A stretch of 63,350 nt of DNA, the filler included, from Collodictyon triciliatum (Eukaryota), in NCBI GenBank assembly GCA_043381765.1. It is 9 parts of 9 records of this genome, joined end to end, with 100 filler letters (N's around TTAATTAATTAA, not from the genome) between each part and the next. Parts side by side here need not be neighbours in the genome. Positions count along the whole stretch, not along the records: positions 7,067 to 14,023 come from JBHJMP010004143.1; 8 more parts are not named here. One strand, 5' to 3'. Of the stretch, positions 923 to 20,881 are shown one piece after another; the stretch's first letter is position 1; every line of letters begins with the position of its first letter. The notes below the pieces were generated by a model. The model was not told the origin of the DNA. It worked only from the letters and a program-made list of their open reading frames with translations, and made no database searches. The position numbers and the translations under genes are program-made.

Positions 923-2092
923 TAATAGCTGTTATCTTGGTCCTTTGAACTCATCACACACATACCTCTGCTAGCTCTAGAGCTCTTTCATACATCTTCG
1001 TGGATTGCCCCAGGTAACCAGCACCAAAAGCTTCTTTTCCAGCCTTCGCAAATAACTAGCAGTTTTTTTTTTGTTTTTGTTTGTAAATAGAAAGTGAAGT
1101 AAACTAAAGTTCATTATATTATAGAGCTATACGCACTAAATGGTTGTATTTTATAAAAAAGATATGGCGTGTGCATCTTTTCTTCTCTTGAAATCACAAG
1201 GAAAACAATTCATGCGAAAGGGAGCATTCCGTCGACATGATTGTCACAAATAATTATTTTTTTTTTTAAAAATACAAATACTTACATGCATCGCCTTTTC
1301 TTCTTGTTTGGCGACAATAAAATGCTCAGCAAGGTCGCCAGTCGAAATAAAGGAGTCATGAAATGTCTCGGAGGCTGAAAAAGAAACAATCTGCAAACAT
1401 AAAGTAATATGCAAAGCGTCATTCATACATATATCCAGCATGTTTAAAATATCGCTCCGTTTTTACATAATCATTTCAACCAACCACCAACCTGGGTACT
1501 GACCATAGTGCGGGTTTCCATGATAACAAGACCTCTGACTATACTCAAAATAGTTAAGTTGGAAAATATGTATGCGTCACTTATTTCAGTTTCACCATCA
1601 GAATCTGGACTAGAGGTCCCCAGGGCGATTTGAGCTAGTCTCCAAGAACTTGATGGCTTGATATACTTCTCAAGAAGACCTTTGGAAACGAGCTCTGAAA
1701 GGGATTGGTCCACTCTGATTTACATGATAGATTTGCTCATAAGAGATAAGAGATATGATAAGATTTTTATCTGCAAAATCTTATTGTTTTGTTCTTGATT
1801 TGGTTCATTTCCGATAAAATAGTATTTGCCATATATACATAAAGATAGTTGTTTCTTGATCAAACAGAATCCATTTATATTATTTGTAATGTGATAACCT
1901 TTCATGAAGAGTTCTCCAAAAGCTGGACAGCTGTTGGATATTCCGGAGAATGCGCTCCAATAGGTCTCGGTGAAAGACTTCTCCGATACAGCTAGATATC
2001 TGATGGTGATGGTTGTCAAGAAGTCATTGAAGCTAATATTTGAAGCTGACTACATGTGGTATATTCAATTTTCATGTCTAAGGAAGGTATAA

Positions 2093-2130
<38 letters not shown>

Positions 2131-5100
2131 GCCTTCAGCAGCATCTGGTCTGATGGGTCGAGTCGGTCTACGGTACTCATAACGATTCCTGAAATCATGT
2201 CGTTTGGGTCATAATTTGCTTTTTCGATGGCCGCATTGTCGATGCGAGCAGTTCTTAATTGAGTATCAATAATAATGAAGCCGACAGCTAGTCCAGCATT
2301 CAGCAATTGTTTTAATATAAGAGGATTCCCGTTTGATTTCGCAGTTAAGGTTGATTCCATCTGGAGGTGGGGTAATTTGGTGTTCAGCAGCTTTATTCAG
2401 TTAAAAAGAATCGGAAACTGGAAATTTTTCAAACATAAACCGAAAATAAAAATAGAAGCAGAAAATGGTATGGTTACAGCAGGTGCGATGTTATCTACAA
2501 CTATCGTTTGGCAGGTTATTAAGCGAACGGTTTCCGGCGGTAGAGGCTCGAGAGTCATTCTTTTTGAAGACAGAGGGTTGATTATATTATTATGGAGTCA
2601 CAGATCCATCGAAAATCTTAAAGCATGAGCTAGGTACGGAGGAAGAAAAGAGAAAGAAAAAGAGGACTCTTTGTGTTTATGTCAAAGAATATTTTTAAAT
2701 TATAAGAAGATAAAATGAAAAAAGTTCAACAGTAGAAACCTCTGGATATTTGCCTGCTTCAACAAAGGTTTGATGAGTTCTGTGTGGGAGTCAAATGCCG
2801 TAATCGAGGAAATGAGGACAACAGGTGAGAGTTCTTTGACAATCGCCAACAGAATTTCGACGGAAGACTCATCCATATCCCCCAAATCATCCAGGTATAC
2901 AATCAATGCTTGCCCCAAGTCACTGGCTATTTTTCTCAAGGATTCAATAACCAAGTTCTTTAAAGCCTTGAATATGTCTTCTGGAGACAGAGGTTGCTCT
3001 AATTTTTTCTCGGAACTTTGCAATTGCTCTTCATTTTGAATAGAAAAGCTTATCCTTCTATCCTTTCCAGATGATAATCCAATCACATCATCTTCTGGCC
3101 TCGAGGGCGTAAGGTAAGGATTGCTCTGACTTGTTTGCACGGAGGGTTTAAGAGGAACAGGAGTCTGAGAATCAAACGTAACAACCCTTCTATTTCTGGA
3201 TCTCAGTCTATTGAATACCGTGGTGGGGTTACTCGAACCAGCAGCAGCGGCAGCTTTGGATTCGCTTCTTTCAGAGGTTGATGTGTCTTCTTCAGTGGGA
3301 GGTGATATCATTTCTTCCAGCATACCATGATCAATATTCATAATACCACAAATAAGTGTCTTCCAAACACCAAGAGTATTTTGGTTTTGCGATTTGGATT
3401 CGATCAAAATCGATGGTGTGATAAGGTTTTGACTGATAGTGTATAACTCATGCAAAAGACTAGTCTTCCCCATACCTATTATGTGAAAGAGTACGAGAGA
3501 GCTGTCATTATCGTTGCTTGACTTTCATAAGAAATCAAAACATGAATAATTATTTATTTATTTTTTTTAAAAAAAAATACATGAAATAAGTCGATGAAAC
3601 CATACCAGGCTCACTGTCAACTATCACAATCGCAGATTGTTTTGTCTGATTACTGCTGTCTATGACCCTTTGAATAATGTCTTTCTCTTTATCTCTTCCG
3701 TAAAAAAAGTTTCTCGAAAGTTTCTAGCAAACAGAAAAGGATTGGGTGAGACAATCGTGTGTCGTAAAAAGATAGTACAAAGTGAAAATAAAAGAATTTT
3801 GAAAGTTGCAAACAACACACGCTTTTCTTTCTTTGTATATCAATGTTCAAAATACCATTCTGCTATATTGCTGAGTGCCCCTTTTGGATTGATTAGCTGA
3901 ATATATCTGCACGGCTACGGATTTCCCTTTCACTTTAATAGACCCAAGACTCTTCATCGCTAGGTACCTTTATTATTATTATTTTTATCGATGAACATTA
4001 GAAATAAGGCTCTCTCAACCGAATGAAAAGAAATATACGGTAATTGACCATATCTCAATTTTTTTTTTTTTACACTTTGTATCATTCACGGAGACATTAC
4101 TATAAAAGAACAGGAATGTACAACAAAACAAGACTGGGTACCTGTCTAAACAGCTTTTTTGAGTCTTCTCGTCACAAATGATATCCTCTTCTGAAGCGTT
4201 GCATAGGCGAGCAGACAGGTTCACCAGATCTCCAACTATGGTATCGAGTTAAGACTTGCATAAAACCCCGAATACGAAAAATTGAAAGCGAAGTACACAT
4301 TACCATGAGTATCAATCGGATATATATATATGACATTTGAGAACCTAATGCATATTCCCATCGGTTTTGGTTTCCCACAACGCCACAAAATATTGTACCC
4401 GACGTAACTCCCGCAGAGCACTTGAGCTTTAGACCGGATGCCATGCTCTGAATTTCTTGTGCCGCTATGATTCAACGAATGTCAACGTCAGCACCGTGTC
4501 ATGGCGGAATCGTCTGAAAGTCTGTATGATGCAATCGAAAATACTTACCAACGACACACCGATACGCGTCGTCGTAATAAGACGTCGGTGGGAGCCCAAA
4601 GCATGCAATCAGAACACAGCCTTTGTCGTCCTGCATTATGTGAATGGAAAACGACATGGCAATTAAAATGAAACAAAAAGTGATATGGCATGTTCCTTTT
4701 TGCTGTATTTACAGGCTGTGTACCAAAGTGATACGTACCATCATAAACTGTCGGATGAACCCTTTCTCCTTCTTGAGAATCTTCTGTGCTGAATGGAAAA
4801 ACTTTTGTGCGACATTAGCTGTGGCTTGGTCACGGAATGTAAGGCCCGGTATCTTTACAAACATCACAGAAATCTTTCGTATCTCATTGAGCATGGATGT
4901 TGTATAGCTGGCACGAAACCGGGAATAGACCTAGTTGGTATTGAGAATATATCGCGTATGTACGGTGGTATCGCAGAATGCATAACAGGCGACAGCGTAT
5001 TTCATCAACTATCGATAATCCATAAAACAAAACAAAACAAAACAAAACAAAACAAAACAAAACAAAACAAAACAAAACAAAACAAAACAAAACAAAACGA

Positions 5101-6715
5101 AACAAAACGAAACAAAACAGATAAAAGCAAAACAAAACAAAACAGATAAAAGCAAATAAAAGCAAATAAAAGCAAATAAAGGCAAAGAAAAGCAAATAAA
5201 AGCAAATAAAAGCAAATAAAAGCAAATAAAAGCAAATAAAACATATTCAATTTAGACCATGATGATAATAATATCCAGATATATCAACCGTCAGCATACC
5301 GATCCGTTGACATATGGAACCAACAGATGGCATAGCCCGGAGGGATAGTCGTAGCTCTGCGGTGCCGCTGGGATGAAGGACTGGAATTCTTTGACTCGGA
5401 AAAATCCATTCTCAAGCTCATCGCCACTGCAAAAGTCACTGACAAAATGGTGGCTGATGGGAGAGAGAACCACTTCACCTTTCTCTGCATGGTGCAAAGC
5501 ATCCGTGATCTGTGTGATGGGCTCGCCTACGACCAAAAACTCAGACTGGTTGTCGAATCCACCCACGTGGACCAGCTGGACCTTGCCGGACCCGACTCCT
5601 GTGTGGAGAAACAGCTTGATTTCTTCTGTGACGGTGTAGTTGTTGAGGGTCTCTTCCAGCTCGAGGGCGCATTGAGCACCGAGTCGCGTCAGCCTTTGCA
5701 GCTGCTGGTTGATTGCAGGAGTGGATTTTTGAGGATTGTATTCGGTCCACGGATTTTCTTCTGTCGTGTGTCTGTTCTTGATTTTGTCTTCATATCTGTA
5801 CGCGGGTTTTCCTTTTTGAGCCAAGACGTAGAGACAAACTCAATGAAGTTTTCAGTCTCAAAAATTGTTGCAAACAGATATAGTACAACTAGAATATGTA
5901 TACTCGTCCGCGTCTGTCCAGATTAAGAGCATCGCATCTCCGGCAAAGCGGACTACGTCACCTTGATTGATTTGTAGAATATATAATAGTAAACGAAAAG
6001 CAAATTTCATGCATTTATTATCATCGTCATACTAGTTTTCTAGGTGTACAACATATATACTCTGCAATGCTACATATAATGTGCTACCTCCGTATTTTAA
6101 GATGATTTGAATCATCTTATCGAAATAAGCATTCAAATGGACGGTGAGTTGCTCGACTCCATGGTGTCCGTTTGCTGACAAGACTTCTGCCATCCGCGTG
6201 AATCTACCCATCCCACGCAGATAGGGTTTGCGCATTTATTTCATGAATATGTGAACAATCGAACAATCGAACAATCAATAAGCAATAAAACAATGAAACG
6301 ATGAAACAATGAAACGATGAAACAATGAAACGATGAAACAATGAAACGATGAAACAATCAAACAATCAAGCAATCAAACAATCAAACAATAGAAAAATAG
6401 AACAATAAATAGAATACCAAAGAAACCGAAAATCAAAAGACTTAATATGCAACTTTGAAATGAAGAAAAAAAACGATAAAAGGTATTCCATGACAGCTGT
6501 CATGTAGCAATTGTAGGTGATGAGAATAGCAATTGAGCCCATCAGCTCATTTCTTCTCTTATTTACCCAGAAACATCCGCAAATAGCACACAAGCATGTA
6601 CAGCGATGACTTCGGCACATTTTGGAGGATTTGCATCCAACAGAAATCGCGTGAGCACCGCATGAGGAACTGCTGAGATGAAGCTTTGGACGATCTCAGG
6701 TGCAAACGCATCCAT
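180..6715 (-). CDS. Soluble class III nucleotidyl cyclase of the ADCY10/sAC (Dictyostelium sGC-like) family: two cyclase domains + STAND P-loop NTPase + helical C-terminus; multi-exon, 3' end probably truncated by the contig end
   Basis: Exons reconstructed by eye. C1: ATG 6715 MDAFAPE...VLFADVSG|FTRMAE...LNAYFDKMIQIILKYGG|DVVRFAGDAML, then LHTGVGSG. C2: EIRKISVMFV, RQFMM|DDKGCVLIACFGLPP, AGVTSGTIFCGVVG..RWEYAL|VGDLVNLSARL. NTPase: Walker A EP|GMGKTSLL, Walker B LIVYLDD, STAND GNP motif and VDRLDPSDQMLLK. Junctions checked were GT-AG. Lower boundary approximate. Confidence 0.88.
826..920. repeat. (AAT)n intronic microsatellite
   Basis: Direct reading. Confidence 0.95.
5024..5240. repeat. (AAAAC)n followed by (AAAAGCAAAT)n, intronic
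   Basis: Direct reading. Confidence 0.95.
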
Positions 6716-6754
6716 TTTGCTTCTATGATAAGGAATAGTTACAGTAATGAATGA

Positions 6755-7173: not shown

Positions 7174-7724
7174 AGGGTCGGTGGTTCTTTTGTTCTGGAG
7201 GGACTGGTCTCGTTCGCACAAGTTTTATCAGGGCGGCTTCGGGATTGATTAATTGATTGCTTGATTCATTTCACAGACGAGAAAGCCCAGCACAAAAAGT
7301 TCGGAAAAAACAGATTGTGGTTCATGTATCCAATGCCAACAACAGATATACTATGATTACCATAATAGTCAAGTCGATTCAAAAGGAGCCTAAGACGATT
7401 TGGTTCATGGGTATATCTACTGAGGTCAAATATTTATATATAGAATAACAGATCTACATAGAACAGTCAGGACAATGAAAGCGGATTGATCAAAAAGAAA
7501 AAGTGCTGTCGAGTTGGAGAATAAGCACACGCCAAGCCAAGAGACGTTGAAGGCAATGCTGAGTGACAGAGCAAGACTTAATAGAGCATAAAGAAGATCA
7601 CTTGAGAAAACTGGAGTGTAAATGGAGCCCTTAGAGAAAACACTTTTTCAATGTTTTTTTGCCCCGAAACTTCTAACATTTTTTATTCTTCCTTTTCTTT
7701 CTTTTTCAATTCAGTCTGAGCTGC

Positions 7725-10700
7725 ATGGAGGCGGATCAGATATTCACCTTCGATGGTGTTCAATTAAAGATCGTCAGGCTCGACCACCCAAATGAGAGCC
7801 CCTTCTCTGTGCAAATATACGACTCGGAAGCTGAAGAACGTTGGATCGACGCTGATTTTATCACCCCGCCAGAGTTTTGCTTGGACTCTTTGGCAGAAGC
7901 CTACCGTTATACGTTCAGAATGGAAAAAGCATCACTTACCCAGTCACAAAGCTGCTACAAGCTTATGGTTTCCTGGGATGCAGTAAAAAAATACCAACAG
8001 GACGGCAGCATTGTGGAGACAAGAATCCCGCGTGTCTACCTGCAAAGTGGGCTTTTCGGTGGCGGTCTGTGGAGCTCCAAAACATCTCCAAATGTTAAAT
8101 TTAGTGGAGATATTGAAAGACAAAAAATGAGGGAAAAATCACTTACGAAAAATTCCAATAACTCGAGAAGTTCAACGATTACAACAGGGAACCAGCCAAA
8201 AACAGATGCGACTGGAACTGAAACTGGAACTGGAACTGGAAATAGTGCTGGTCCTAGTTCTGAATCTACAAAAGACGGAACATTTTCAAAGAAGCAAAAT
8301 GACATGCCTGCGCCAACTAAAGATGGACGTGAAGGATTTGAAAAGAATTGGCCATTCTGCAACATTAAACCGGAGGATTTGAGAAAGCTGGATTCTTCTC
8401 CAAGTGGTAACATCCCATCAAATACCCTAGAGTTCGCTCACCACTACCGATTTGGAAAGTTAAAGAAATATAAATCATTGATTCTACATGTACTCAAAAT
8501 TGCATCCAGCATGGAAAAGTTAGAAATTATTCACATTTGGGAAGTTGGATTGCTCGCCCGCTCAAATGATGTTAAAGTATGTAGCAAATTATGGAGAATC
8601 ATAACACGGCCTGACTTAGATGAACTACATTCTCATCCTCATTACGTCAGATGCTTGGCAGAACTTTTGTTGTTCTCCGATTCTCATCTTCATCAAAAAC
8701 ACATAGATGAAGTCATGAAGAAAGTACTTCACAAAATTAAGATTAAATCAGACCATGAAAAGGAGGAATATAAAAGATCATTTGAGAAAAAAAATCGTGA
8801 AATGCAGTTTACCACTGAGGCAAAAATAGAAGAAAATGGTGAGATACCACCAAATTACTCAGAAATTCAGTATTCAGAAGTCACAGATGAAAATCCAGAA
8901 AAGCCTCTGTCATCGAGTGGTGTAGATGCATCAAAAGAACCTAATCAACAATCACATATGGAGAACCAAGGGAATGGAGAGAGTACCACTAGTCCATCAG
9001 AACCCATACTTGAATCGAGTAAACGGAAAGCAAAAAGAAGTGAAGACAAGCCAAAAGATGCAGCGAACATGACGAAAGAAAAGGATGACGCAGGAGAAGA
9101 AAACCCGATGGATGACCACCAAATGCAATTTCTCATTCACTCTGCCGGATTTCTTCTGGATTCTATTATCTTGAGAAATATCAAATTAAATGTGTCCGAA
9201 GTTGATAAAGATATGTTAAACTTCTTCCTTCTTGAGTCAAGATTGAGTCGACTAGACCAATATACCCATATTTTTGAAAAGGCTTACCAAGGATTTATTC
9301 GAATATTTCATTCTTCTGAATCATCCTCAATTAACTACTGGAAACCGAACGAAACTCAATCAGCTGATACAACGCAAAATCAGTCAAAAAGGAAAGTTTT
9401 GGAAGGCCATGGAGATTGTCAATTCCATATTGAATCTAATGATCAAAGAGAATGTTGGTATGAAGATTACATATTATTTAAATCTCTTATCCTGGCCCAT
9501 CGTTTGGAAGAAGCAGTTGCATTTTCAGAACACATATTTTCCATGGACAAGAAGTCATATCTTTCATTCTTTGTACTGGAGGAATTCGTCAGAATAGCAC
9601 AACTACCTATTAAAGCGTGCTCCAAATCAGCATTAAAGTATATCGAAAAATTGTTGAGTGACAGTTTTTTGGTTGAACAAAAGCCATACTATGGGCACCA
9701 TGCTATATATCAGCTCCGAAAACTTGGACAGTACGAAATTCATTCAAAAAAAGTACATACAATCCTTCAAAATAAAACGAATACAGTTAAAAAGAGCATT
9801 TTCATGGACCTAGTAAAGAAAGTGCTCGGAACAAACTTGGAACGACTGATTACACAGGATTTGCAGACTGATGAGAATTTTATTCCCACCTTTTTATTGA
9901 ACCAATCTCAACAAGAATTCAAGAAATGGAACTTCTCGACAGATCAAAACTGGGGCTCAAATGAGTATGAAGGAGACGAGGATGAAGATGAACTAGAAAA
10001 TGATGAGGTATATATTGAGTTAAAAGCAAAGAAAAACTTCAACGACAACCACAACACTGATGCAAACTCTATAGTCAATGATTTTTTGAAGGGGAATTCA
10101 GGGACGCTAATCATAATGGGTAATTCTGGTGCTGGAAAGTCAACTTTTGCCAGGAGATTATACGAAAGACTGCGCTCAGACACTTCCCAGAAAAAACACC
10201 CTATCTTCATTTATTTACCAGCGGTCAAGGAACCCAGAAGATTAGAGGAATACGTAAAGAAAAAGATGAATCCAGAGTATGAAAAACTGATGAAGTCAAT
10301 TTCGGCTGTCTTCATCATGGATGGATATGACGAGTTGAAAGAAGCTGGAACAGTAAAAATCATCAAGGAAAACTTGAAGTTTCTCCAGAAACACCACATC
10401 GTAATTACATATCGATATAATCTACAACAATCAAAACACGATTTGATGAAAATATTCGGGATAGAAGAATATCAAGGAATAAGTCCTTTGCAATTCATGA
10501 TTTTGCAACCTTTTGGTGATGAACAAGTAAAGAGATACATTGAATCATTCGTAGAATCTCAACCAAAAATATCCACTTCAAGCAAGGACTTAGTTTCCAA
10601 GGTGACGAGCTCTCCGAGTCTAAGGGAATCAGCAACATCTCCTTTCATTCTCTCATTGATTATGAGGGTTCTGCCTGAGTATATGGAAAAGAAAAAGTCA

Positions 10701-13700
10701 GAATCCGATGACAATCTATCCAGGTATGAAATATATGATAAATTTATAACTAATTGGCACCAGAGAGCGGAGAAAAGCTCGAAAGACACACGGCTTTTCA
10801 ACAAAAAGAATTTTGAGGACTATTCCATAAGATTATCCCAAAAACTTATCGAAAAGGATACAACGGTTGCCGTAATGAGTAGGAATAAAGGACTTCTTGT
10901 TTCGTCTAGTGAATGGAATGAATTCATCGGAGACACTTATGAGTTAACAGAATTGAGAAAAGGAGCTCTTGTGCGCAGATTTAATGTATCAGAAAACGAA
11001 GAGCAATATGGCTTTGTTCATCGCTCTATCCAAGAGTTTTTCGGTGCCAAGAAAGCCATTGAAGAAGTAGAAAAAGATGTATGGGGGGATGAAAAGAAAT
11101 CACTATTCTGTAATTTGAAAGATAAAGACTTTTTGGTGAAGCTTTTCATTGCAGATTATGCATTCAAGAATCCTGAATTTGTTGAAAAGCTGATAAAAAT
11201 CGTCCATGAATCAAAAGAAGGAAAAGAATTAGGAAGAAAACTCCGGTCAGCCAGCATAGCTATCGCAATACTAAACTATGCTAGAATACCACTTCACGAT
11301 TTGGACTTCAAGGGAATAAATATTCCTGGGGCCGACCTATCTCAAGCTATTCTGCAAAACGTGGATTTTTCTGGGGCAGACTTAAGTGGGGTCTCTTTCA
11401 TCGATGCTGACTTGAGAGGATGCACATTTGATAATGCAACACTAGAGAACACCAACTTCGGACAACTCCCGAAACTGAAGCATAACCACCCAGTAACTTG
11501 TGGAATAGCCAATCCAAATGCAGATGATGAAAATGTTCTCTTGTACACCGCTACAAAAAATGTGATTTCAGTGTGGGATTTGGAATCATGTGATTCACAT
11601 GCAAAGTTGAAACATGAAAATGTAAGTGCTATGACTTTGATTAAGAAGAACGAAGATTCTTATCTAGTAACAGGAGACAAATCTGGTATCATTTGTATTT
11701 GGGATACCATCTTGTGCGAGAAAATATTTGAAATACCAGGTATAGAAACAGGAGCAGCTCAAATAAATTGTATCTCATTTAACCTTGAGCTGCAGTCAAG
11801 GTTCAAAATTGACAGAAGCGACTCTTTTTTATTCGTTTGTGGAAACATAATTGGTGAGATAACATTCTTCCTGCTAAATCCGAAGCATGTTTACGAAAAC
11901 TCACTTAAAATAATAAAGAAAGTGAAAATGCCTGGCGAGATTACTGCAATAGACTTCTTTTTTGACAGAGAAAAATCGTACATTGTTTACGGAGGGAGCC
12001 TCGGATTCATCGCATATCAAGAGATAGAATTTAATCCTGAGACCATCAAAATATCATTAAGTGACGCCAAAACGGTTAATTTTGAAAAAAAAATTACGAC
12101 GCTCACAGCAATTAAATACCAAGACAGATACAAAATTGCTTTTGCAATAGAAAAAGACATTCACATCCTTGATTCCAGCACTCTCGACCAACCACCAAGG
12201 AAGCTTGAAAGTAGTCATGAAAAAAATATTCGAGATATTCAGTGGATTCCTTCAGACACCTCCGAGCCAGATTTCCTTGTGTCATGTGGAGCTGATAAAA
12301 TGGTTTACGTGTGGAATGTGTCTGGTGGTTCTGTCGCATATCCACTTTTTGGACAAGAAAATGAGGTATCAAAACTTAGTGTTTTCAAATACTTGGGTGA
12401 ATCCTATGTGGTTGGATGCTGTCAAGACAACTATGCCTGGATTTGGAGGGTACGCTCCAATGAGCCGTTGAAAAAACCAGCTGGACATAATCGAGCAATC
12501 AACGCGCTATCGTTGGTGACAAACATAAGAATCGAATCCAAAAGAGACGGAAATGAGCCAAAAAGTACAGAAATTACAAATTATCGCAGTTCTGTCCGTA
12601 AGGTTGTATCCTCTTCCTCCGTGATTGTGACAGGAAGCAGCGATAAACATGTGAAACTGTGGGATTTTGCAACAGGGAACTGTCTTGCAACGAAAAAATT
12701 GGACGCTATGATATCAAAGGTTATTACCAGAAAAACGATAAGCTCTTTTGAAGTTTATTTCCAATTACGTGGCGAAGAAAAGTTCATTTATTCAATTTAT
12801 TCGTTTGATTCGAATATCTCGCCCCATATTATTGTTGAAGAAACAGAAAAAATCACAGATTTCAGCGTTTTCAAAATCGGAGAGAATGATTTCTTAGCTG
12901 TATCATCTAAGTCTGGGCTCAAGGCTTATCAACTCCCTTCAAATGGGTTGGTAAATGAGATAATCAAACCTTCATATACTTTGGTTGATGGCAGAGTTGG
13001 TACATTTTTCATACACACTTCAGAGATACCGAATACTGTGGATATTATTACGGTTCAAGAAGGGATGGTTCGTTATCAAACATATACCTTTAGAAAACCG
13101 TCCTCCACACAGATAGAACAATTAGAAATAGAATCCGAAATCAAGCCCAAAATCGAGCCTGAACAAGGACTTGACACTCCCCTGACACCCATATCGATCA
13201 GAACCAAACTGAATGAAAGCGAGAATACAATATCTACCATCGTCGGGGATGAAAATGGGTTGTTGTACCGATTTGATTTCTCTTTGGATGGAAGTGAACC
13301 AAAGCAAGATGTTTTATTTGAAGGAGAAGACCCTATCTATGCATGTGACACATTCGAATTAGGTGATGTTGGTTATGTGGCGTTTGGGGGCCGCGATGGA
13401 TTTCTACGCGTCGTTGGAGTCTCAAAAGAAGATGAGGAACCAGTTTTTGAGAAGCAAATTCACAACCAAGTCCGTGCAATCAAGTATCACCAAGACACGA
13501 ACACCCTCGTTACCACAGGTGAAAACGGGTTCATGTATGTGTGGACACTTGCGCTTAAAAACGAAAAAGGCGGTTCAAGAGAAATTGAGATGTTAGTCGC
13601 CTGGACTTCTCACACAGTTCTTCACGGAGATGGTATTAGCACAGATGGCCTTAAAAAATGCTCAGAACCGAATCGTCGTCTTCTTGAACAGTTAAAATGC

Positions 13701-13712
13701 TCAGAGGTTTAA
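7725..13712 (+). CDS. NLR-like STAND protein, 1995 aa: N-terminal leader - helical domain - NACHT NTPase - pentapeptide repeats - WD40 propellers (paralogue A)
   Basis: Uninterrupted ORF. Walker A IMGNSGAGKST (~10119-10145), Walker B VFIMDGYDE, SPFILSL, winged-helix FVHRSIQEFF. Pentapeptide repeats GADLSQAILQNVDFSGADLSGVSFIDADLRGCTF (~11300-11460). WD repeats such as LVSCGADKMVYVWNV and VTGSSDKHVKLWDF. Confidence 0.92.
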   Translation: MEADQIFTFDGVQLKIVRLDHPNESPFSVQIYDSEAEERWIDADFITPPEFCLDSLAEAYRYTFRMEKASLTQSQSCYKLMVSWDAVKKYQQDGSIVETRIPRVYLQSGLFGGGLWSSKTSPNVKFSGDIERQKMREKSLTKNSNNSRSSTITTGNQPKTDATGTETGTGTGNSAGPSSESTKDGTFSKKQNDMPAPTKDGREGFEKNWPFCNIKPEDLRKLDSSPSGNIPSNTLEFAHHYRFGKLKKYKSLILHVLKIASSMEKLEIIHIWEVGLLARSNDVKVCSKLWRIITRPDLDELHSHPHYVRCLAELLLFSDSHLHQKHIDEVMKKVLHKIKIKSDHEKEEYKRSFEKKNREMQFTTEAKIEENGEIPPNYSEIQYSEVTDENPEKPLSSSGVDASKEPNQQSHMENQGNGESTTSPSEPILESSKRKAKRSEDKPKDAANMTKEKDDAGEENPMDDHQMQFLIHSAGFLLDSIILRNIKLNVSEVDKDMLNFFLLESRLSRLDQYTHIFEKAYQGFIRIFHSSESSSINYWKPNETQSADTTQNQSKRKVLEGHGDCQFHIESNDQRECWYEDYILFKSLILAHRLEEAVAFSEHIFSMDKKSYLSFFVLEEFVRIAQLPIKACSKSALKYIEKLLSDSFLVEQKPYYGHHAIYQLRKLGQYEIHSKKVHTILQNKTNTVKKSIFMDLVKKVLGTNLERLITQDLQTDENFIPTFLLNQSQQEFKKWNFSTDQNWGSNEYEGDEDEDELENDEVYIELKAKKNFNDNHNTDANSIVNDFLKGNSGTLIIMGNSGAGKSTFARRLYERLRSDTSQKKHPIFIYLPAVKEPRRLEEYVKKKMNPEYEKLMKSISAVFIMDGYDELKEAGTVKIIKENLKFLQKHHIVITYRYNLQQSKHDLMKIFGIEEYQGISPLQFMILQPFGDEQVKRYIESFVESQPKISTSSKDLVSKVTSSPSLRESATSPFILSLIMRVLPEYMEKKKSESDDNLSRYEIYDKFITNWHQRAEKSSKDTRLFNKKNFEDYSIRLSQKLIEKDTTVAVMSRNKGLLVSSSEWNEFIGDTYELTELRKGALVRRFNVSENEEQYGFVHRSIQEFFGAKKAIEEVEKDVWGDEKKSLFCNLKDKDFLVKLFIADYAFKNPEFVEKLIKIVHESKEGKELGRKLRSASIAIAILNYARIPLHDLDFKGINIPGADLSQAILQNVDFSGADLSGVSFIDADLRGCTFDNATLENTNFGQLPKLKHNHPVTCGIANPNADDENVLLYTATKNVISVWDLESCDSHAKLKHENVSAMTLIKKNEDSYLVTGDKSGIICIWDTILCEKIFEIPGIETGAAQINCISFNLELQSRFKIDRSDSFLFVCGNIIGEITFFLLNPKHVYENSLKIIKKVKMPGEITAIDFFFDREKSYIVYGGSLGFIAYQEIEFNPETIKISLSDAKTVNFEKKITTLTAIKYQDRYKIAFAIEKDIHILDSSTLDQPPRKLESSHEKNIRDIQWIPSDTSEPDFLVSCGADKMVYVWNVSGGSVAYPLFGQENEVSKLSVFKYLGESYVVGCCQDNYAWIWRVRSNEPLKKPAGHNRAINALSLVTNIRIESKRDGNEPKSTEITNYRSSVRKVVSSSSVIVTGSSDKHVKLWDFATGNCLATKKLDAMISKVITRKTISSFEVYFQLRGEEKFIYSIYSFDSNISPHIIVEETEKITDFSVFKIGENDFLAVSSKSGLKAYQLPSNGLVNEIIKPSYTLVDGRVGTFFIHTSEIPNTVDIITVQEGMVRYQTYTFRKPSSTQIEQLEIESEIKPKIEPEQGLDTPLTPISIRTKLNESENTISTIVGDENGLLYRFDFSLDGSEPKQDVLFEGEDPIYACDTFELGDVGYVAFGGRDGFLRVVGVSKEDEEPVFEKQIHNQVRAIKYHQDTNTLVTTGENGFMYVWTLALKNEKGGSREIEMLVAWTSHTVLHGDGISTDGLKKCSEPNRRLLEQLKCSEV

Positions 13713-19198: not shown

Positions 19199-20020
19199 TT
19201 CCTCGACCTGAGAGGCGGACTGTGCTTCAAACGAGGGTGCTTTGTGGGTGCTGGGGGGGCGAGTCGAAAGAGAAGGCAAGCTGATTTGTTGAGGCGACCA
19301 AGAAGAGATCATGGCGTTGATCAAAAGTTGGGTGTATGATCGGCCATGTGAGAAGCTCAGTGCGATGTAAGGAACCACTCTTACACGTCCATTATCATAT
19401 GTAAATATGCGTACTATATTCCACAGTGCAGGCGGCAATTATTAGATTATGACTATCAATTTTGAGTTTAATTTATAAAATCCAGATGTAACAGGACAAT
19501 TCTGGACATCATTTTCCACATATGCATCAACATCTGCACAGGAGGAAGCCAATACAGCGCAGACGGTTTTGTCCCGTATAAATCCATCATGTCCCTCACA
19601 CAACCTCCATTTGCCACAGGCTGCACAACTGGCCAGTCATAGAATCCCATCCGCCCATTCAACCGGAGCACGGTATAAAAGCACAACACACCAGCGACTC
19701 TGGCGTATATATACGACTCCCAACCGCGCTCAAGCTTGGCAGCCAATCGAACAGCAGCCAAAATACACAACGTCCTCTGCCCAGCGTAAACCCGGGTGAC
19801 ACCGCCCGCCGCAAGAGGCACAAACACAAATGCACACACACACACACACACACACACACAACGGAGGGGGACGAAAGGAGAAACCTGCGGGGGGCATGCA
19901 AAGACCTGCTCCCTGGCCGTGGAATCCACACCTGTCATGCACACCTGTCATGCACACCTGCCACAGCACAGAGAGAGAAAGATTAACACCGAGCCACCTG
20001 CACGCAGGAATCAAGAAACA

Positions 20021-20881
20021 ATGACGCGCGGGGGACTGGGACTGGGACGTGCAGCCAGGCTCGGGGCGGCGGCTGTGCTTGCGGTTGGGCTCCTGCTGGG
20101 GGCTTTGCCGTGCGGGGCGGTGCCTGTGGGCGGGGCGGGCAACGGGACGGCGTTTGGCGGGGCGGAGGAGGGCAGGGCGGTGCAGGAGGTGTACTGGAAC
20201 GACGGGGCGCGGTTCAACTGGGCGGGCGGGGTTGTGCTGAACAACCAGTGGGGCAAGTCGAGCGCAAACCCGGGGTACTCGCAGGCGATTGTCAAGAAGG
20301 ACGACGGGACGGTGGGGATGTGGTACGAGTGGTGGGGCAACGACAACCTGGTGAAGGCGTACCCGGCCGTGATCTTCGGGTGGCACTGGGGCTACTTCAC
20401 GGCGTACGGCCAGTACGGGCTGCCGTACCAGGTCGGGGCGGGCAAGTCGCTCAACATCGCGCTGTCCGCCGGGCACCGCAACCTGGCCGGCTACCAGAAG
20501 CTCAACTTCGCCTGGGACATCTGGGTGGCCCACAACCCAAACCCCCCGGTCCCCAACTACGAGATCATGGTCTGGCCCTACCGCGTCGCCCAGTACCCCA
20601 TCGGCGGCCGCGTCGAGACCGTCTCCTACTGGGGCGCCACCTGGGACCTGCACTCCGGCCAGATGTCCGACGGCCAGAACTCCTGGTACGTCTACTCCTT
20701 CCTCCGCACCTCAAACACCCTCAGCGTCTCCGGCAACCTCGCAGACTTCATCAACCACGTCTACCGCAAGGGCTGGATCCCGGGCTCCGCCTATGTCGTC
20801 GGCGCTGAGGTCGGCACAGAGGTCATCCAGGGCAAGGGCGAGTTCGACATCTACAGCTACCGCTTCGACGGCGCACGCTAG
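20021..20881 (+). CDS. Secreted glycoside hydrolase family 12 (endo-beta-1,4-glucanase/xyloglucanase-like), intronless
   Basis: Signal-peptide-like N-terminus (AAAVLAVGLLLGALPCGA). GH12 motifs LNNQWG, VKAYPAVIFGWHWG, NFAWDIW, nucleophile YEIMVW, acid/base EVGTEV. ATG 20021, TAG 20879-20881. Confidence 0.9.
   Translation: MTRGGLGLGRAARLGAAAVLAVGLLLGALPCGAVPVGGAGNGTAFGGAEEGRAVQEVYWNDGARFNWAGGVVLNNQWGKSSANPGYSQAIVKKDDGTVGMWYEWWGNDNLVKAYPAVIFGWHWGYFTAYGQYGLPYQVGAGKSLNIALSAGHRNLAGYQKLNFAWDIWVAHNPNPPVPNYEIMVWPYRVAQYPIGGRVETVSYWGATWDLHSGQMSDGQNSWYVYSFLRTSNTLSVSGNLADFINHVYRKGWIPGSAYVVGAEVGTEVIQGKGEFDIYSYRFDGAR

Follow-up and report, generated by a model that had tools for sequence, protein, structure and literature searches.

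Two very long intronless open reading frames (ORFs), here called gene A (P0001) and gene B (P0002), raise the question of whether a freshwater eukaryote carries NLR-type sensors (NLR, NOD-like receptor), and whether such proteins would be a new kind of system or relatives of a known one. Both lie in a 63,350-nucleotide stretch of DNA from the Collodictyon triciliatum assembly GCA_043381765.1, referred to below as the window. It consists of nine unlinked contigs of 6941-6966 bases each (~6.95 kb), separated by sixteen runs of 44 N with TTAATTAATTAA inside each pair (N44-TTAATTAATTAA-N44), and implies no contiguity in the genome. Much work has been done on the NLR-type STAND receptors of animals, plants, fungi and, by now, bacteria; knowledge of those in other eukaryotes is, as far as we are aware, scant. 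As judged from their sequences, A and B encode STAND NTPases with the three-part layout of NLR-like proteins. They are a real, diverged variant of the already described NACHT-pentapeptide-WD40 'NLR-like' family, which they extend, and not a new kind of system.

A and B are by far the longest ORFs of the window (1995 and 1810 codons, the next one having 361). Pfam detects a NACHT domain (PF05729) at 32.8 bits in A and 27.0 bits in B, the latter only narrowly above the cut-off of 26.7; P0003, a relative introduced below, reaches 45.7 bits. Pentapeptide repeats (PF00805) come right after the NACHT module (56.1 bits in A and 40.1 in B, cut-off 20.2), followed by WD40 repeats (PF00400; 55.2 and 60.8 bits, cut-off 27). 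Both halves of the WD40 region match propellers, the second half more weakly, and the length of the region (~745 residues) would fit two of them. The Walker A (GNSGAGKST in A, GKSGAGKST in B) and Walker B motifs (VFIMDGYDE and IFILDGFDE) are intact. A profile of 14 core sequences matches, through its positions 8-347, the nucleotide-binding, helical and winged-helix domains (NBD-HD-WHD) of NLRC4 (residues 66-373; E 1.3e-9), and it also matches NLRP9, NLRP3 and solved pentapeptide proteins. The block FVHRSIQEFF is presumably the histidine motif of the winged helix. NB-ARC is absent from the complete list of 25 Pfam families for gene B and from the matches listed for gene A; NACHT is the STAND domain found. 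The preliminary description of this DNA, made by inspection of the sequence, had reported collinear paralogues with intact NTPase motifs on two of the nine contigs. Both ORFs are found there with exactly the limits it gave, and all seven identical blocks that it quoted, the motifs TLEFAH, EVGxLA and WYxxYI, and both Walker motifs are present in A and B. Its assignment to eukaryotic, NLR-like STAND NTPases is likewise upheld by the Pfam layout, the NLRC4 profile match and the intron-split genes on other contigs.

BLASTP aligns the two proteins collinearly from residues 465 (A) and 288 (B) to their C-termini, with 618 of 1559 positions identical (40%, E = 0), and tblastn adds an N-terminal match between residues 220-407 of A and 157-367 of B (28% identity, E 3e-12). 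At 40% protein identity the synonymous sites are saturated. A tblastn search of the window with both proteins finds no third copy. Identity varies greatly along the chain: 28% in the head, 19% in the linker, 27-36% in the helical region, 45% in NACHT, 47% in the helical and winged-helix part behind it, 67% in the pentapeptide part, 42% in the first WD half, 25% in residues 1601-1810 and 56% in the last 185 residues. The least conserved stretch covers residues ~1650-1800 (12-30% in 60-residue windows). The earlier remark that divergence is much greater in the distal WD blades is correct for that stretch but not for the last 185 residues, whose identity is exceeded only by that of the pentapeptide part.

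The affiliation of the core emerges from searches of several collections. When a 500-residue core was compared, through a word index, with 5.8 billion clusters, 21 of the 8000 candidates scored proved to be matches. The best of them is P0003, a 1907-residue EukProt transcript, 38% identical in the core and 29% identical along a collinear stretch of 1484 residues. This collinearity takes in part of the N-terminal helices, and the head with its GGG motif is common to P0003 as well. Next, at 24-28% identity, come NACHT-pentapeptide-WD40 proteins of Mortierella sp., M. alpina, Linnemannia elongata and Mycoavidus; all other matches have pentapeptide repeats alone in common. A scan of 185,579 prokaryotic species genomes, one per species, gave 171 relatives, 80 of which were kept. 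Seventy-four of these loci belong to records titled as metagenome-assembled genomes (MAGs) of Mycoavidus cysteinexigens, the rest coming from a gammaproteobacterial MAG (four, in tandem), a Bacillota MAG and an Anammoxibacter MAG. Three of the Mycoavidus-titled MAGs contribute 22, 15 and 14 of the 80 kept loci (L059-L138). In metagenomes (JGI contigs, scanned with the clade's own motifs) 58 loci were found at 20-29% identity, short pieces reaching 31-36%, and none of them is a close member of the clade. No prokaryotic or metagenomic locus exceeds ~29% identity over the core. Viral contigs (IMG/VR) contain 11 loci (L139-L149), several per contig, at 21-29% identity to the core and none close; they are probably predicted prophage regions of bacterial genomes. 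By sequence similarity, the core of A and B belongs to the NACHT-pentapeptide-WD40 family of Mortierellomycota and Mycoavidus.

For a tree of the core, 232 domain matches were reduced to the 119 covering the core profile nearly end to end (pentapeptide-only and partial matches being dropped) and then, by clustering at 55% identity, to 42 representatives, which were submitted to a quick IQ-TREE run. A and B are sisters (support 97) and form with P0003 a clade of support 100 on a stem of 1.51 changes per column. This clade is not part of the Mycoavidus/Mortierellaceae clade (20 rows, support 99) but lies next to it, at a polytomy from which bacterial and unlabelled branches also arise. Forcing it onto that clade costs 2.67 log-likelihood units, and the approximately unbiased (AU) test neither rejects nor supports this union (p-AU 0.361). 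The comparison with Mortierellaceae and Mycoavidus relatives, proposed in the preliminary description, places A and B inside the family, in a separate, long-branched position. Because the clade is long-stemmed and lies outside the Mycoavidus/Mortierellaceae clade, no donor can be named. On this tree, A and B are old paralogues, whose duplication is lineage-specific and later than the split from P0003, the nearest known relative.

The described counterparts of this layout are the 'NACHT-PPR-WD40' NOD-like receptors common to Mortierellomycota and Mycoavidus endosymbionts (Evol Lett 2024, PMC11291939). Their NACHT, like that of A and B, is followed by a short pentapeptide segment and then by a long WD40 region, and is preceded by a long helical domain. 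They are also the best named sequence matches of A and B, at 24-29% identity in the 500-residue core. A and B differ from them in forming a separate long-branched clade with P0003, in having a helical domain found only by profile-profile comparison, in the addition of a ~110-residue beta-rich head and a disordered linker without match in those relatives, and in residing in an intron-rich, non-fungal-looking freshwater eukaryote. The bacterial anti-phage bNACHT proteins also carry NACHT between an N-terminal output domain and C-terminal repeats, pentapeptide and beta-propeller modules being listed among the sensors in the consulted part of the preprint by Kibby et al. (bioRxiv 10.1101/2022.07.19.500537). 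The same part of that preprint argues for several acquisitions of NACHT by eukaryotes from bacteria, each followed by lineage-specific expansion, and places endosymbiont homologues of HET-D/E in NACHT clade 18; unlike for the bNACHT proteins tested there, defence is not demonstrated in it for any member with the layout of A and B. Fungal HET-E/NWD proteins, too, combine NACHT and subsequent WD40 repeats with an N-terminal output domain. In contrast to these, A and B have neither a HET domain nor highly similar internal WD units, and a pentapeptide segment separates NACHT from WD40. In fungal HET-E-type genes, the WD repeats are of high internal identity.

The N-terminal region had been described as lacking a recognisable TIR, HET, HeLo or death fold, and Pfam bears this out: with E values up to 10, it assigns the N-termini of A and B to no family, ARM_5 included. 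ARM_5 is not among the Pfam matches listed for P0003 either. A three-sequence N-terminal profile finds nothing below E 0.47 among PDB sequences, and the ESM Atlas has no usable match to the N-terminal part of A or B. Among 1.84 billion representatives the profile retrieves one match (E 6.3e-4), an 80-residue fragment, P0024, which is plainly a further family member (TIEFAHFYR ... EVGQLA).

The relatives offer a clue to the helical region. Of 11 N-termini analysed with Pfam, six have ARM_5 (PF23948) right before NACHT (E 1e-30 to 1e-79), the others carrying PRTase-CE (one), TIR (one), a sub-threshold TPR (one) or nothing (two). When the N-terminal alignment is compared by hhalign with an alignment of ten ARM_5-type regions, 274 columns align collinearly (probability 81.4%, E 1.2e-5, score 53.5). 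Control scores are 27.3 and 26.2 for reversed alignments, at most 19.4 in 30 column shuffles and at most 26.6 in 30 block shuffles. The EVGxLA and WYxxYI motifs of A and B fall on EVVALA and WYxAL of the ARM_5 domain; gene B is aligned only from residue ~208 (208-494), in the same position before NACHT. AlphaFold2 models residues 1-605 of gene B with a helical solenoid at 170-560, the predicted local distance difference test (pLDDT) score being 55-80 in 170-470, and a search of 48,161 chains with this helical model returns ARM/HEAT proteins at Z 8-10.6.

However, it must be noted that this link is remote and that several results tell against it. A and B stay below the threshold of the Pfam model of ARM_5. 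With a hidden Markov model of the ARM_5 region run on a set of 12 sequences, the three N-termini score E 0.25-0.56, whereas six of the nine other relatives reach 1e-45 or better. The AlphaFold2 model of gene B (residues 1-605) is of poor quality, with a mean pLDDT of 47.9, and for helical repeats the search tool advises caution with Z values under ~13, a level that these matches do not reach. The N-terminal models of A and B are also too poor for a fold search to exclude an effector domain. We nevertheless consider it probable that the helical region of A and B is homologous to the ARM_5 domain, as a very diverged copy. What had been proposed as a new effector module would then be, for the most part, a diverged form of the usual Mycoavidus/Mortierellaceae N-terminus, with only the first ~115 residues and the linker falling outside. 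Long helical N-termini named 'NLR_Helical' are described for NLRs of Mortierellomycetes and also in Mycoavidus (PLoS Comput Biol 2022, PMC9815663, consulted in part). Like these (>500 residues there) and ARM_5, A and B have an alpha-solenoid N-terminus at the same position before NACHT, with EVxxLA and WY motifs in common; unlike ARM_5, they stay below the Pfam threshold. PF23948, which the literature searched does not mention, may well be the same domain as 'NLR_Helical'. ARM_5 precedes NACHT in most of the scanned Mycoavidus-titled loci. Branches with the same core and another domain in the N-terminal slot are represented by L073, from the Anammoxibacter MAG, with PRTase-CE, and by L024, from a metagenome contig, with TIR.

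In front of the helices, the heads of A, B and P0003 consist of a beta-rich stretch that ends in a common P..L.GGG..S (L-x-GGG). The model of the head is poor (mean pLDDT 52.8), and a fold search with it reached at best Z 3.3-4.4, for the heads of CCDC61, SAS-6 and XRCC4, which is not enough to build on. That the L-x-GGG end might be ubiquitin-like was also considered, but found no support. It is conceivable, though rather improbable, that the ~110-residue head on its disordered linker is a new clade-specific NLR output module, either a self-associating signalling domain or a piece cleaved at the glycine run, and that A and B belong to a larger, lineage-specific set of NLRs, mostly unseen so far, in a group of protists for which no such set has been described. 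The self-associating option is raised because the only, weak, fold matches of the head are to oligomerising heads.

Is the host a eukaryote, and is it the bearer of these genes? A Pfam scan of 129 ORFs of the window gave matches in six, of five kinds: CDT1, a DEAD-box helicase, Ndc80, a protein kinase and a retroelement zinc-finger fragment. The CDT1, helicase, Ndc80 and kinase genes, on other contigs than A and B, are intron-split with short exons; reading of the frames shows the helicase and the kinase each cut into many short exons. Since these contigs hold conserved genes in many short exons, the host is an intron-rich eukaryote, and A and B reside in an intron-rich, non-fungal-looking freshwater eukaryote, for which the earlier term 'protist' is plausible, if no more specific than that. 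Gene A ends in TAA and gene B in TGA, and therefore standard stop codons apply. The window contains no ribosomal RNA (Rfam scan) and no transfer RNA gene (tRNA scan). The guanine + cytosine (GC) content of the ORFs (0.385 in A, 0.40 in B) and that of their third codon positions (GC3; 0.365 and 0.379) are similar to those of the surrounding contigs. Microsatellites occur at many contig ends, and the A/T-rich microsatellites that flank A and B resemble those at the ends of other contigs. Gene A also contains low-complexity sequence of eukaryotic style, namely a 119-residue acidic/serine-rich insert and a coding microsatellite.

Five public runs contain part of gene A, and four of them (X1-X4) were aligned to it. 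Contigs of X1 cover 25 of 30 bins of the gene and those of X3 cover 14 of 30, at 90-99% identity. The loose ends of contigs from X1 and X3 carry letters that we take to be the 3' part of the Smart-seq template-switch oligo, and for this reason the two runs are regarded as complementary DNA (cDNA) libraries. The freshwater metatranscriptome X2 and the freshwater metagenome X4 contain pieces of gene A of 157, 123 and 151 nucleotides with zero differences. In one X1 contig the match begins at 7713, 12 nucleotides before the ATG, preceded by eight unlike letters and the oligo; this hints that the messenger RNA of the X1 organism's copy starts ~20 nucleotides upstream of the ATG, with no further upstream exon. 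Two features of these data detract from the case. Template-switch junctions also occur inside gene A (three in X3), so that the 5' end is a hint only, and the RNA-library evidence consists of assembled contigs, which carry neither expression level nor strand. The depth of X4 jumps to 146 at 8088-8309, in the bin that holds the coding (ACTGGA)5 microsatellite, which most likely reflects unrelated low-complexity matches.

A design of ARM-like solenoid, NACHT, pentapeptide repeats and WD40, hitherto tied to Mortierella and Mycoavidus, thus appears in at least two other eukaryotes, in a transcribed, intronless and very diverged form. Its presence there is relevant to the frequency with which such genes have moved between bacteria and eukaryotes, and opens a second eukaryotic context for the question of what an enzyme-less ARM-like N-terminus does.

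As to function, we hold it to be rather likely that A and B are old paralogues encoding ligand-gated single-chain STAND switches, with the sensing of non-self as their most probable biology. The chain would comprise, in this order, a beta-rich head (~110 residues), a disordered linker, an ARM-like alpha-solenoid (~400 residues), NACHT with its winged helix, a pentapeptide beta-helix and ~745 residues of WD40 propeller. By analogy with other NACHT/STAND proteins, the WD40/pentapeptide end would keep NACHT closed and ADP-bound at rest, the propellers, perhaps together with the pentapeptide helix, serving as both sensor and autoinhibitor. A ligand bound to the propellers would then trigger nucleotide exchange and oligomerisation, and the ARM-like and head parts, gathered in this way, might recruit a partner or activate it by proximity. 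As the chain lacks an enzyme domain, it most likely acts through an adaptor-type and not a catalytic output. An output role for the N-terminal position fits, since relatives have TIR or PRTase-CE in the same slot. What is sensed would, on the same analogy, most likely be non-self (viruses, bacteria or symbionts).

The preliminary description had also spoken of a probable expanded family. Copies on two of nine contigs that were drawn by length, and not by place, speak for expansion, with the caveat that an assembly broken at microsatellites favours a 6-kb intronless gene among its 7-kb contigs. A further indication comes from loose ends of X1 and X3 contigs at 13455 and 13486, which flank the block QIHNQVRAIKY. 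The peptide that they encode resembles gene B, with which it shares, as counted by eye, 26 of 31 residues, against 17 of 31 with gene A. The corresponding nucleotides are ~71% identical to gene B over 59 letters, the same runs being 90-99% identical to gene A. These ~60 letters suggest, as a hint only, a third family member in organisms related to the host. The claim of expansion is otherwise not sustained. Public protein and metagenome searches gave a single full-length relative (P0003) and a single fragment (P0024), and the WD repeats are without the internal identity of the HET-E type. A search with gene B residues 150-1080 returned three pentapeptide proteins only, and one with residues 150-600 had no match at E 0.01.

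It may then be asked whether A and B are instead conserved low-copy cellular regulators, that is STAND scaffolds with an endogenous ligand (as thought for TEP1 or NWD1) outside any immune or allorecognition repertoire. We regard this as unlikely, although a good part of the evidence weighs on its side and against non-self sensing. The pentapeptide part (67%) and the last WD blades (56%) are the most conserved and the N-terminus the least, unlike what is expected of an arms-race receptor; since it is the presumed sensor end that is most conserved, there is real room for a non-immune role with a conserved ligand. On both contigs Tandem Repeats Finder detects only microsatellites, and no highly similar internal WD repeats at the DNA level; since near-identical tandem units are missing from the WD region, there is no diversification of repeats in the manner of fungal HET-E. 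The proteins have no enzymatic effector, and the 29%-identical transcript of another eukaryote is collinear over the full length, the GGG of the head and part of the N-terminal helices included. Nor have the large protein searches gone beyond that one full-length relative and one fragment, P0003 being the only clade member in EukProt-derived data. Yet a low-copy regulator sits poorly with a copy on each of two of nine random ~7-kb contigs, with the short third variant in cDNA of related organisms, with the TIR or PRTase-CE effectors of related branches, with the strong multiplication of the family in Mycoavidus records (one MAG alone supplying 22 of the 80 kept loci) and with the great divergence of residues 1650-1800.

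The intronless state of A and B in an intron-rich genome invites two other explanations. One is that the genes were acquired from intracellular bacteria, or are used to manage them, as speculated for the Mortierella-Mycoavidus pair. The family is found overwhelmingly in Mycoavidus-titled records and their fungal hosts, and the question is raised by the authors of PMC11291939, at least in part of their text. This symbiosis-related origin or use appears improbable to us, given that A, B and P0003 branch outside the Mycoavidus/Mortierellaceae clade on a long stem, of 1.51 changes per column, so that no donor is identified, and given an AU test that neither rejects nor supports union with that clade (p 0.36). 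Even less credible, indeed very improbable, is bacterial contamination or a very recent transfer, which would mean that the two contigs are not truly part of the eukaryote's genome. Such a suspicion is understandable for long intronless ORFs that almost fill their contigs and for a family that is mostly prokaryotic in the collections searched. It is countered by GC and GC3 values matching the other contigs, by A/T-rich microsatellite flanks like those found elsewhere and by the eukaryote-style low-complexity inserts of gene A. Moreover, the nearest relative is a eukaryotic transcript, the prokaryotic and metagenomic loci being at most ~29% identical over the core, and template-switch cDNA junctions are present. 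The coordinates of the two ligand-gated switches, as we prefer to see A and B, are given in Table 1.

Table 1. Positions of genes A and B and of their parts in the window (aa, amino acid residues)
Feature	Position	Strand	Remarks
Gene A (P0001)	7725..13712	+	Intronless ORF, 1995 aa, ATG to TAA; contig 2
Gene A presumed 5' leader	7713..7724	+	Match of X1 cDNA contig begins at 7713
Gene A head, aa 1-115	7725..8069	+	Beta-rich; ends in invariant P..L.GGG..S; without known family
Gene A low-complexity linker, aa 116-225	8070..8399	+	(ACTGGA)5 microsatellite at 8211-8241; corresponding part of gene B has pLDDT ~22
Gene A helical ARM-like region, aa 226-760	8400..10004	+	Sequence comparison with gene B; profile-profile match to ARM_5
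Gene A-only acidic/serine-rich insert (119 residues), aa 346-464	8760-9116	+	Interrupts the ARM-like region
Gene A NACHT NTPase, aa 794-943	10104..10553	+	Walker A 799-807, Walker B 862-870
Gene A helical and winged-helix part of NACHT module, aa 944-1182	10554..11270	+	Contains FVHRSIQEFF; core profile versus NLRC4
Gene A pentapeptide-repeat segment, aa 1183-1246	11271..11462	+	Pfam PF00805; 67% A/B identity, best conserved
Gene A WD40 beta-propeller region, aa 1251-1995	11475..13709	+	Pfam PF00400
Gene B (P0002)	28573..34005	-	Intronless ORF, 1810 aa, ATG to TGA; contig 5
Gene B head, aa 1-110	33676..34005	-	Ends in LHGGG
Gene B helical ARM-like region, aa 165-575	32281..33513	-	AlphaFold2 helices 170-560; ARM/HEAT fold matches; hhalign to ARM_5 over aa 208-494
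Gene B NACHT, aa 610-764	31714..32178	-	Pfam and Walker motifs
Gene B pentapeptide-repeat segment, aa 997-1059	30829..31017	-	Pfam PF00805
Gene B WD40 beta-propeller region, aa 1065-1810	28576..30813	-	Pfam PF00400

Some further features of the window deserve mention. The DEAD-box helicase gene on contig 4 (24074-26638, minus strand), with its many short exons, contrasts with the two intronless NACHT genes. On contig 1, a multi-exon gene (1474-6740, minus strand) has two adenylate/guanylate-cyclase-like domains, read by eye from motifs and without Pfam match, followed by a P-loop region (GMGKTSLLHEL) with a weak Pfam match to AAA_16 (23.6 bits, cut-off 32.6). The AAA_16 ORF was considered as a third copy of A and B and rejected, because it belongs to this different, cyclase-linked gene and has no similarity to A or B; the gene would be a second STAND-like one in the sample, unrelated to them. 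Contig 3 carries a glycoside hydrolase family 12 ORF whose start resembles a signal peptide (19790-20881, plus strand; Pfam E 3e-17). The ORF directly follows a (CA)n run, in an island of 46-53% GC within a genome of ~37% GC, and may have been acquired horizontally. On contig 8, several frames of both strands are open in the segment 52587-53873 (55% GC), with ORFs of 379 and 419 codons and without Pfam match, and the retroelement zinc-finger fragment (zf-RVT) lies on the same contig at 50800-51081 on the minus strand.

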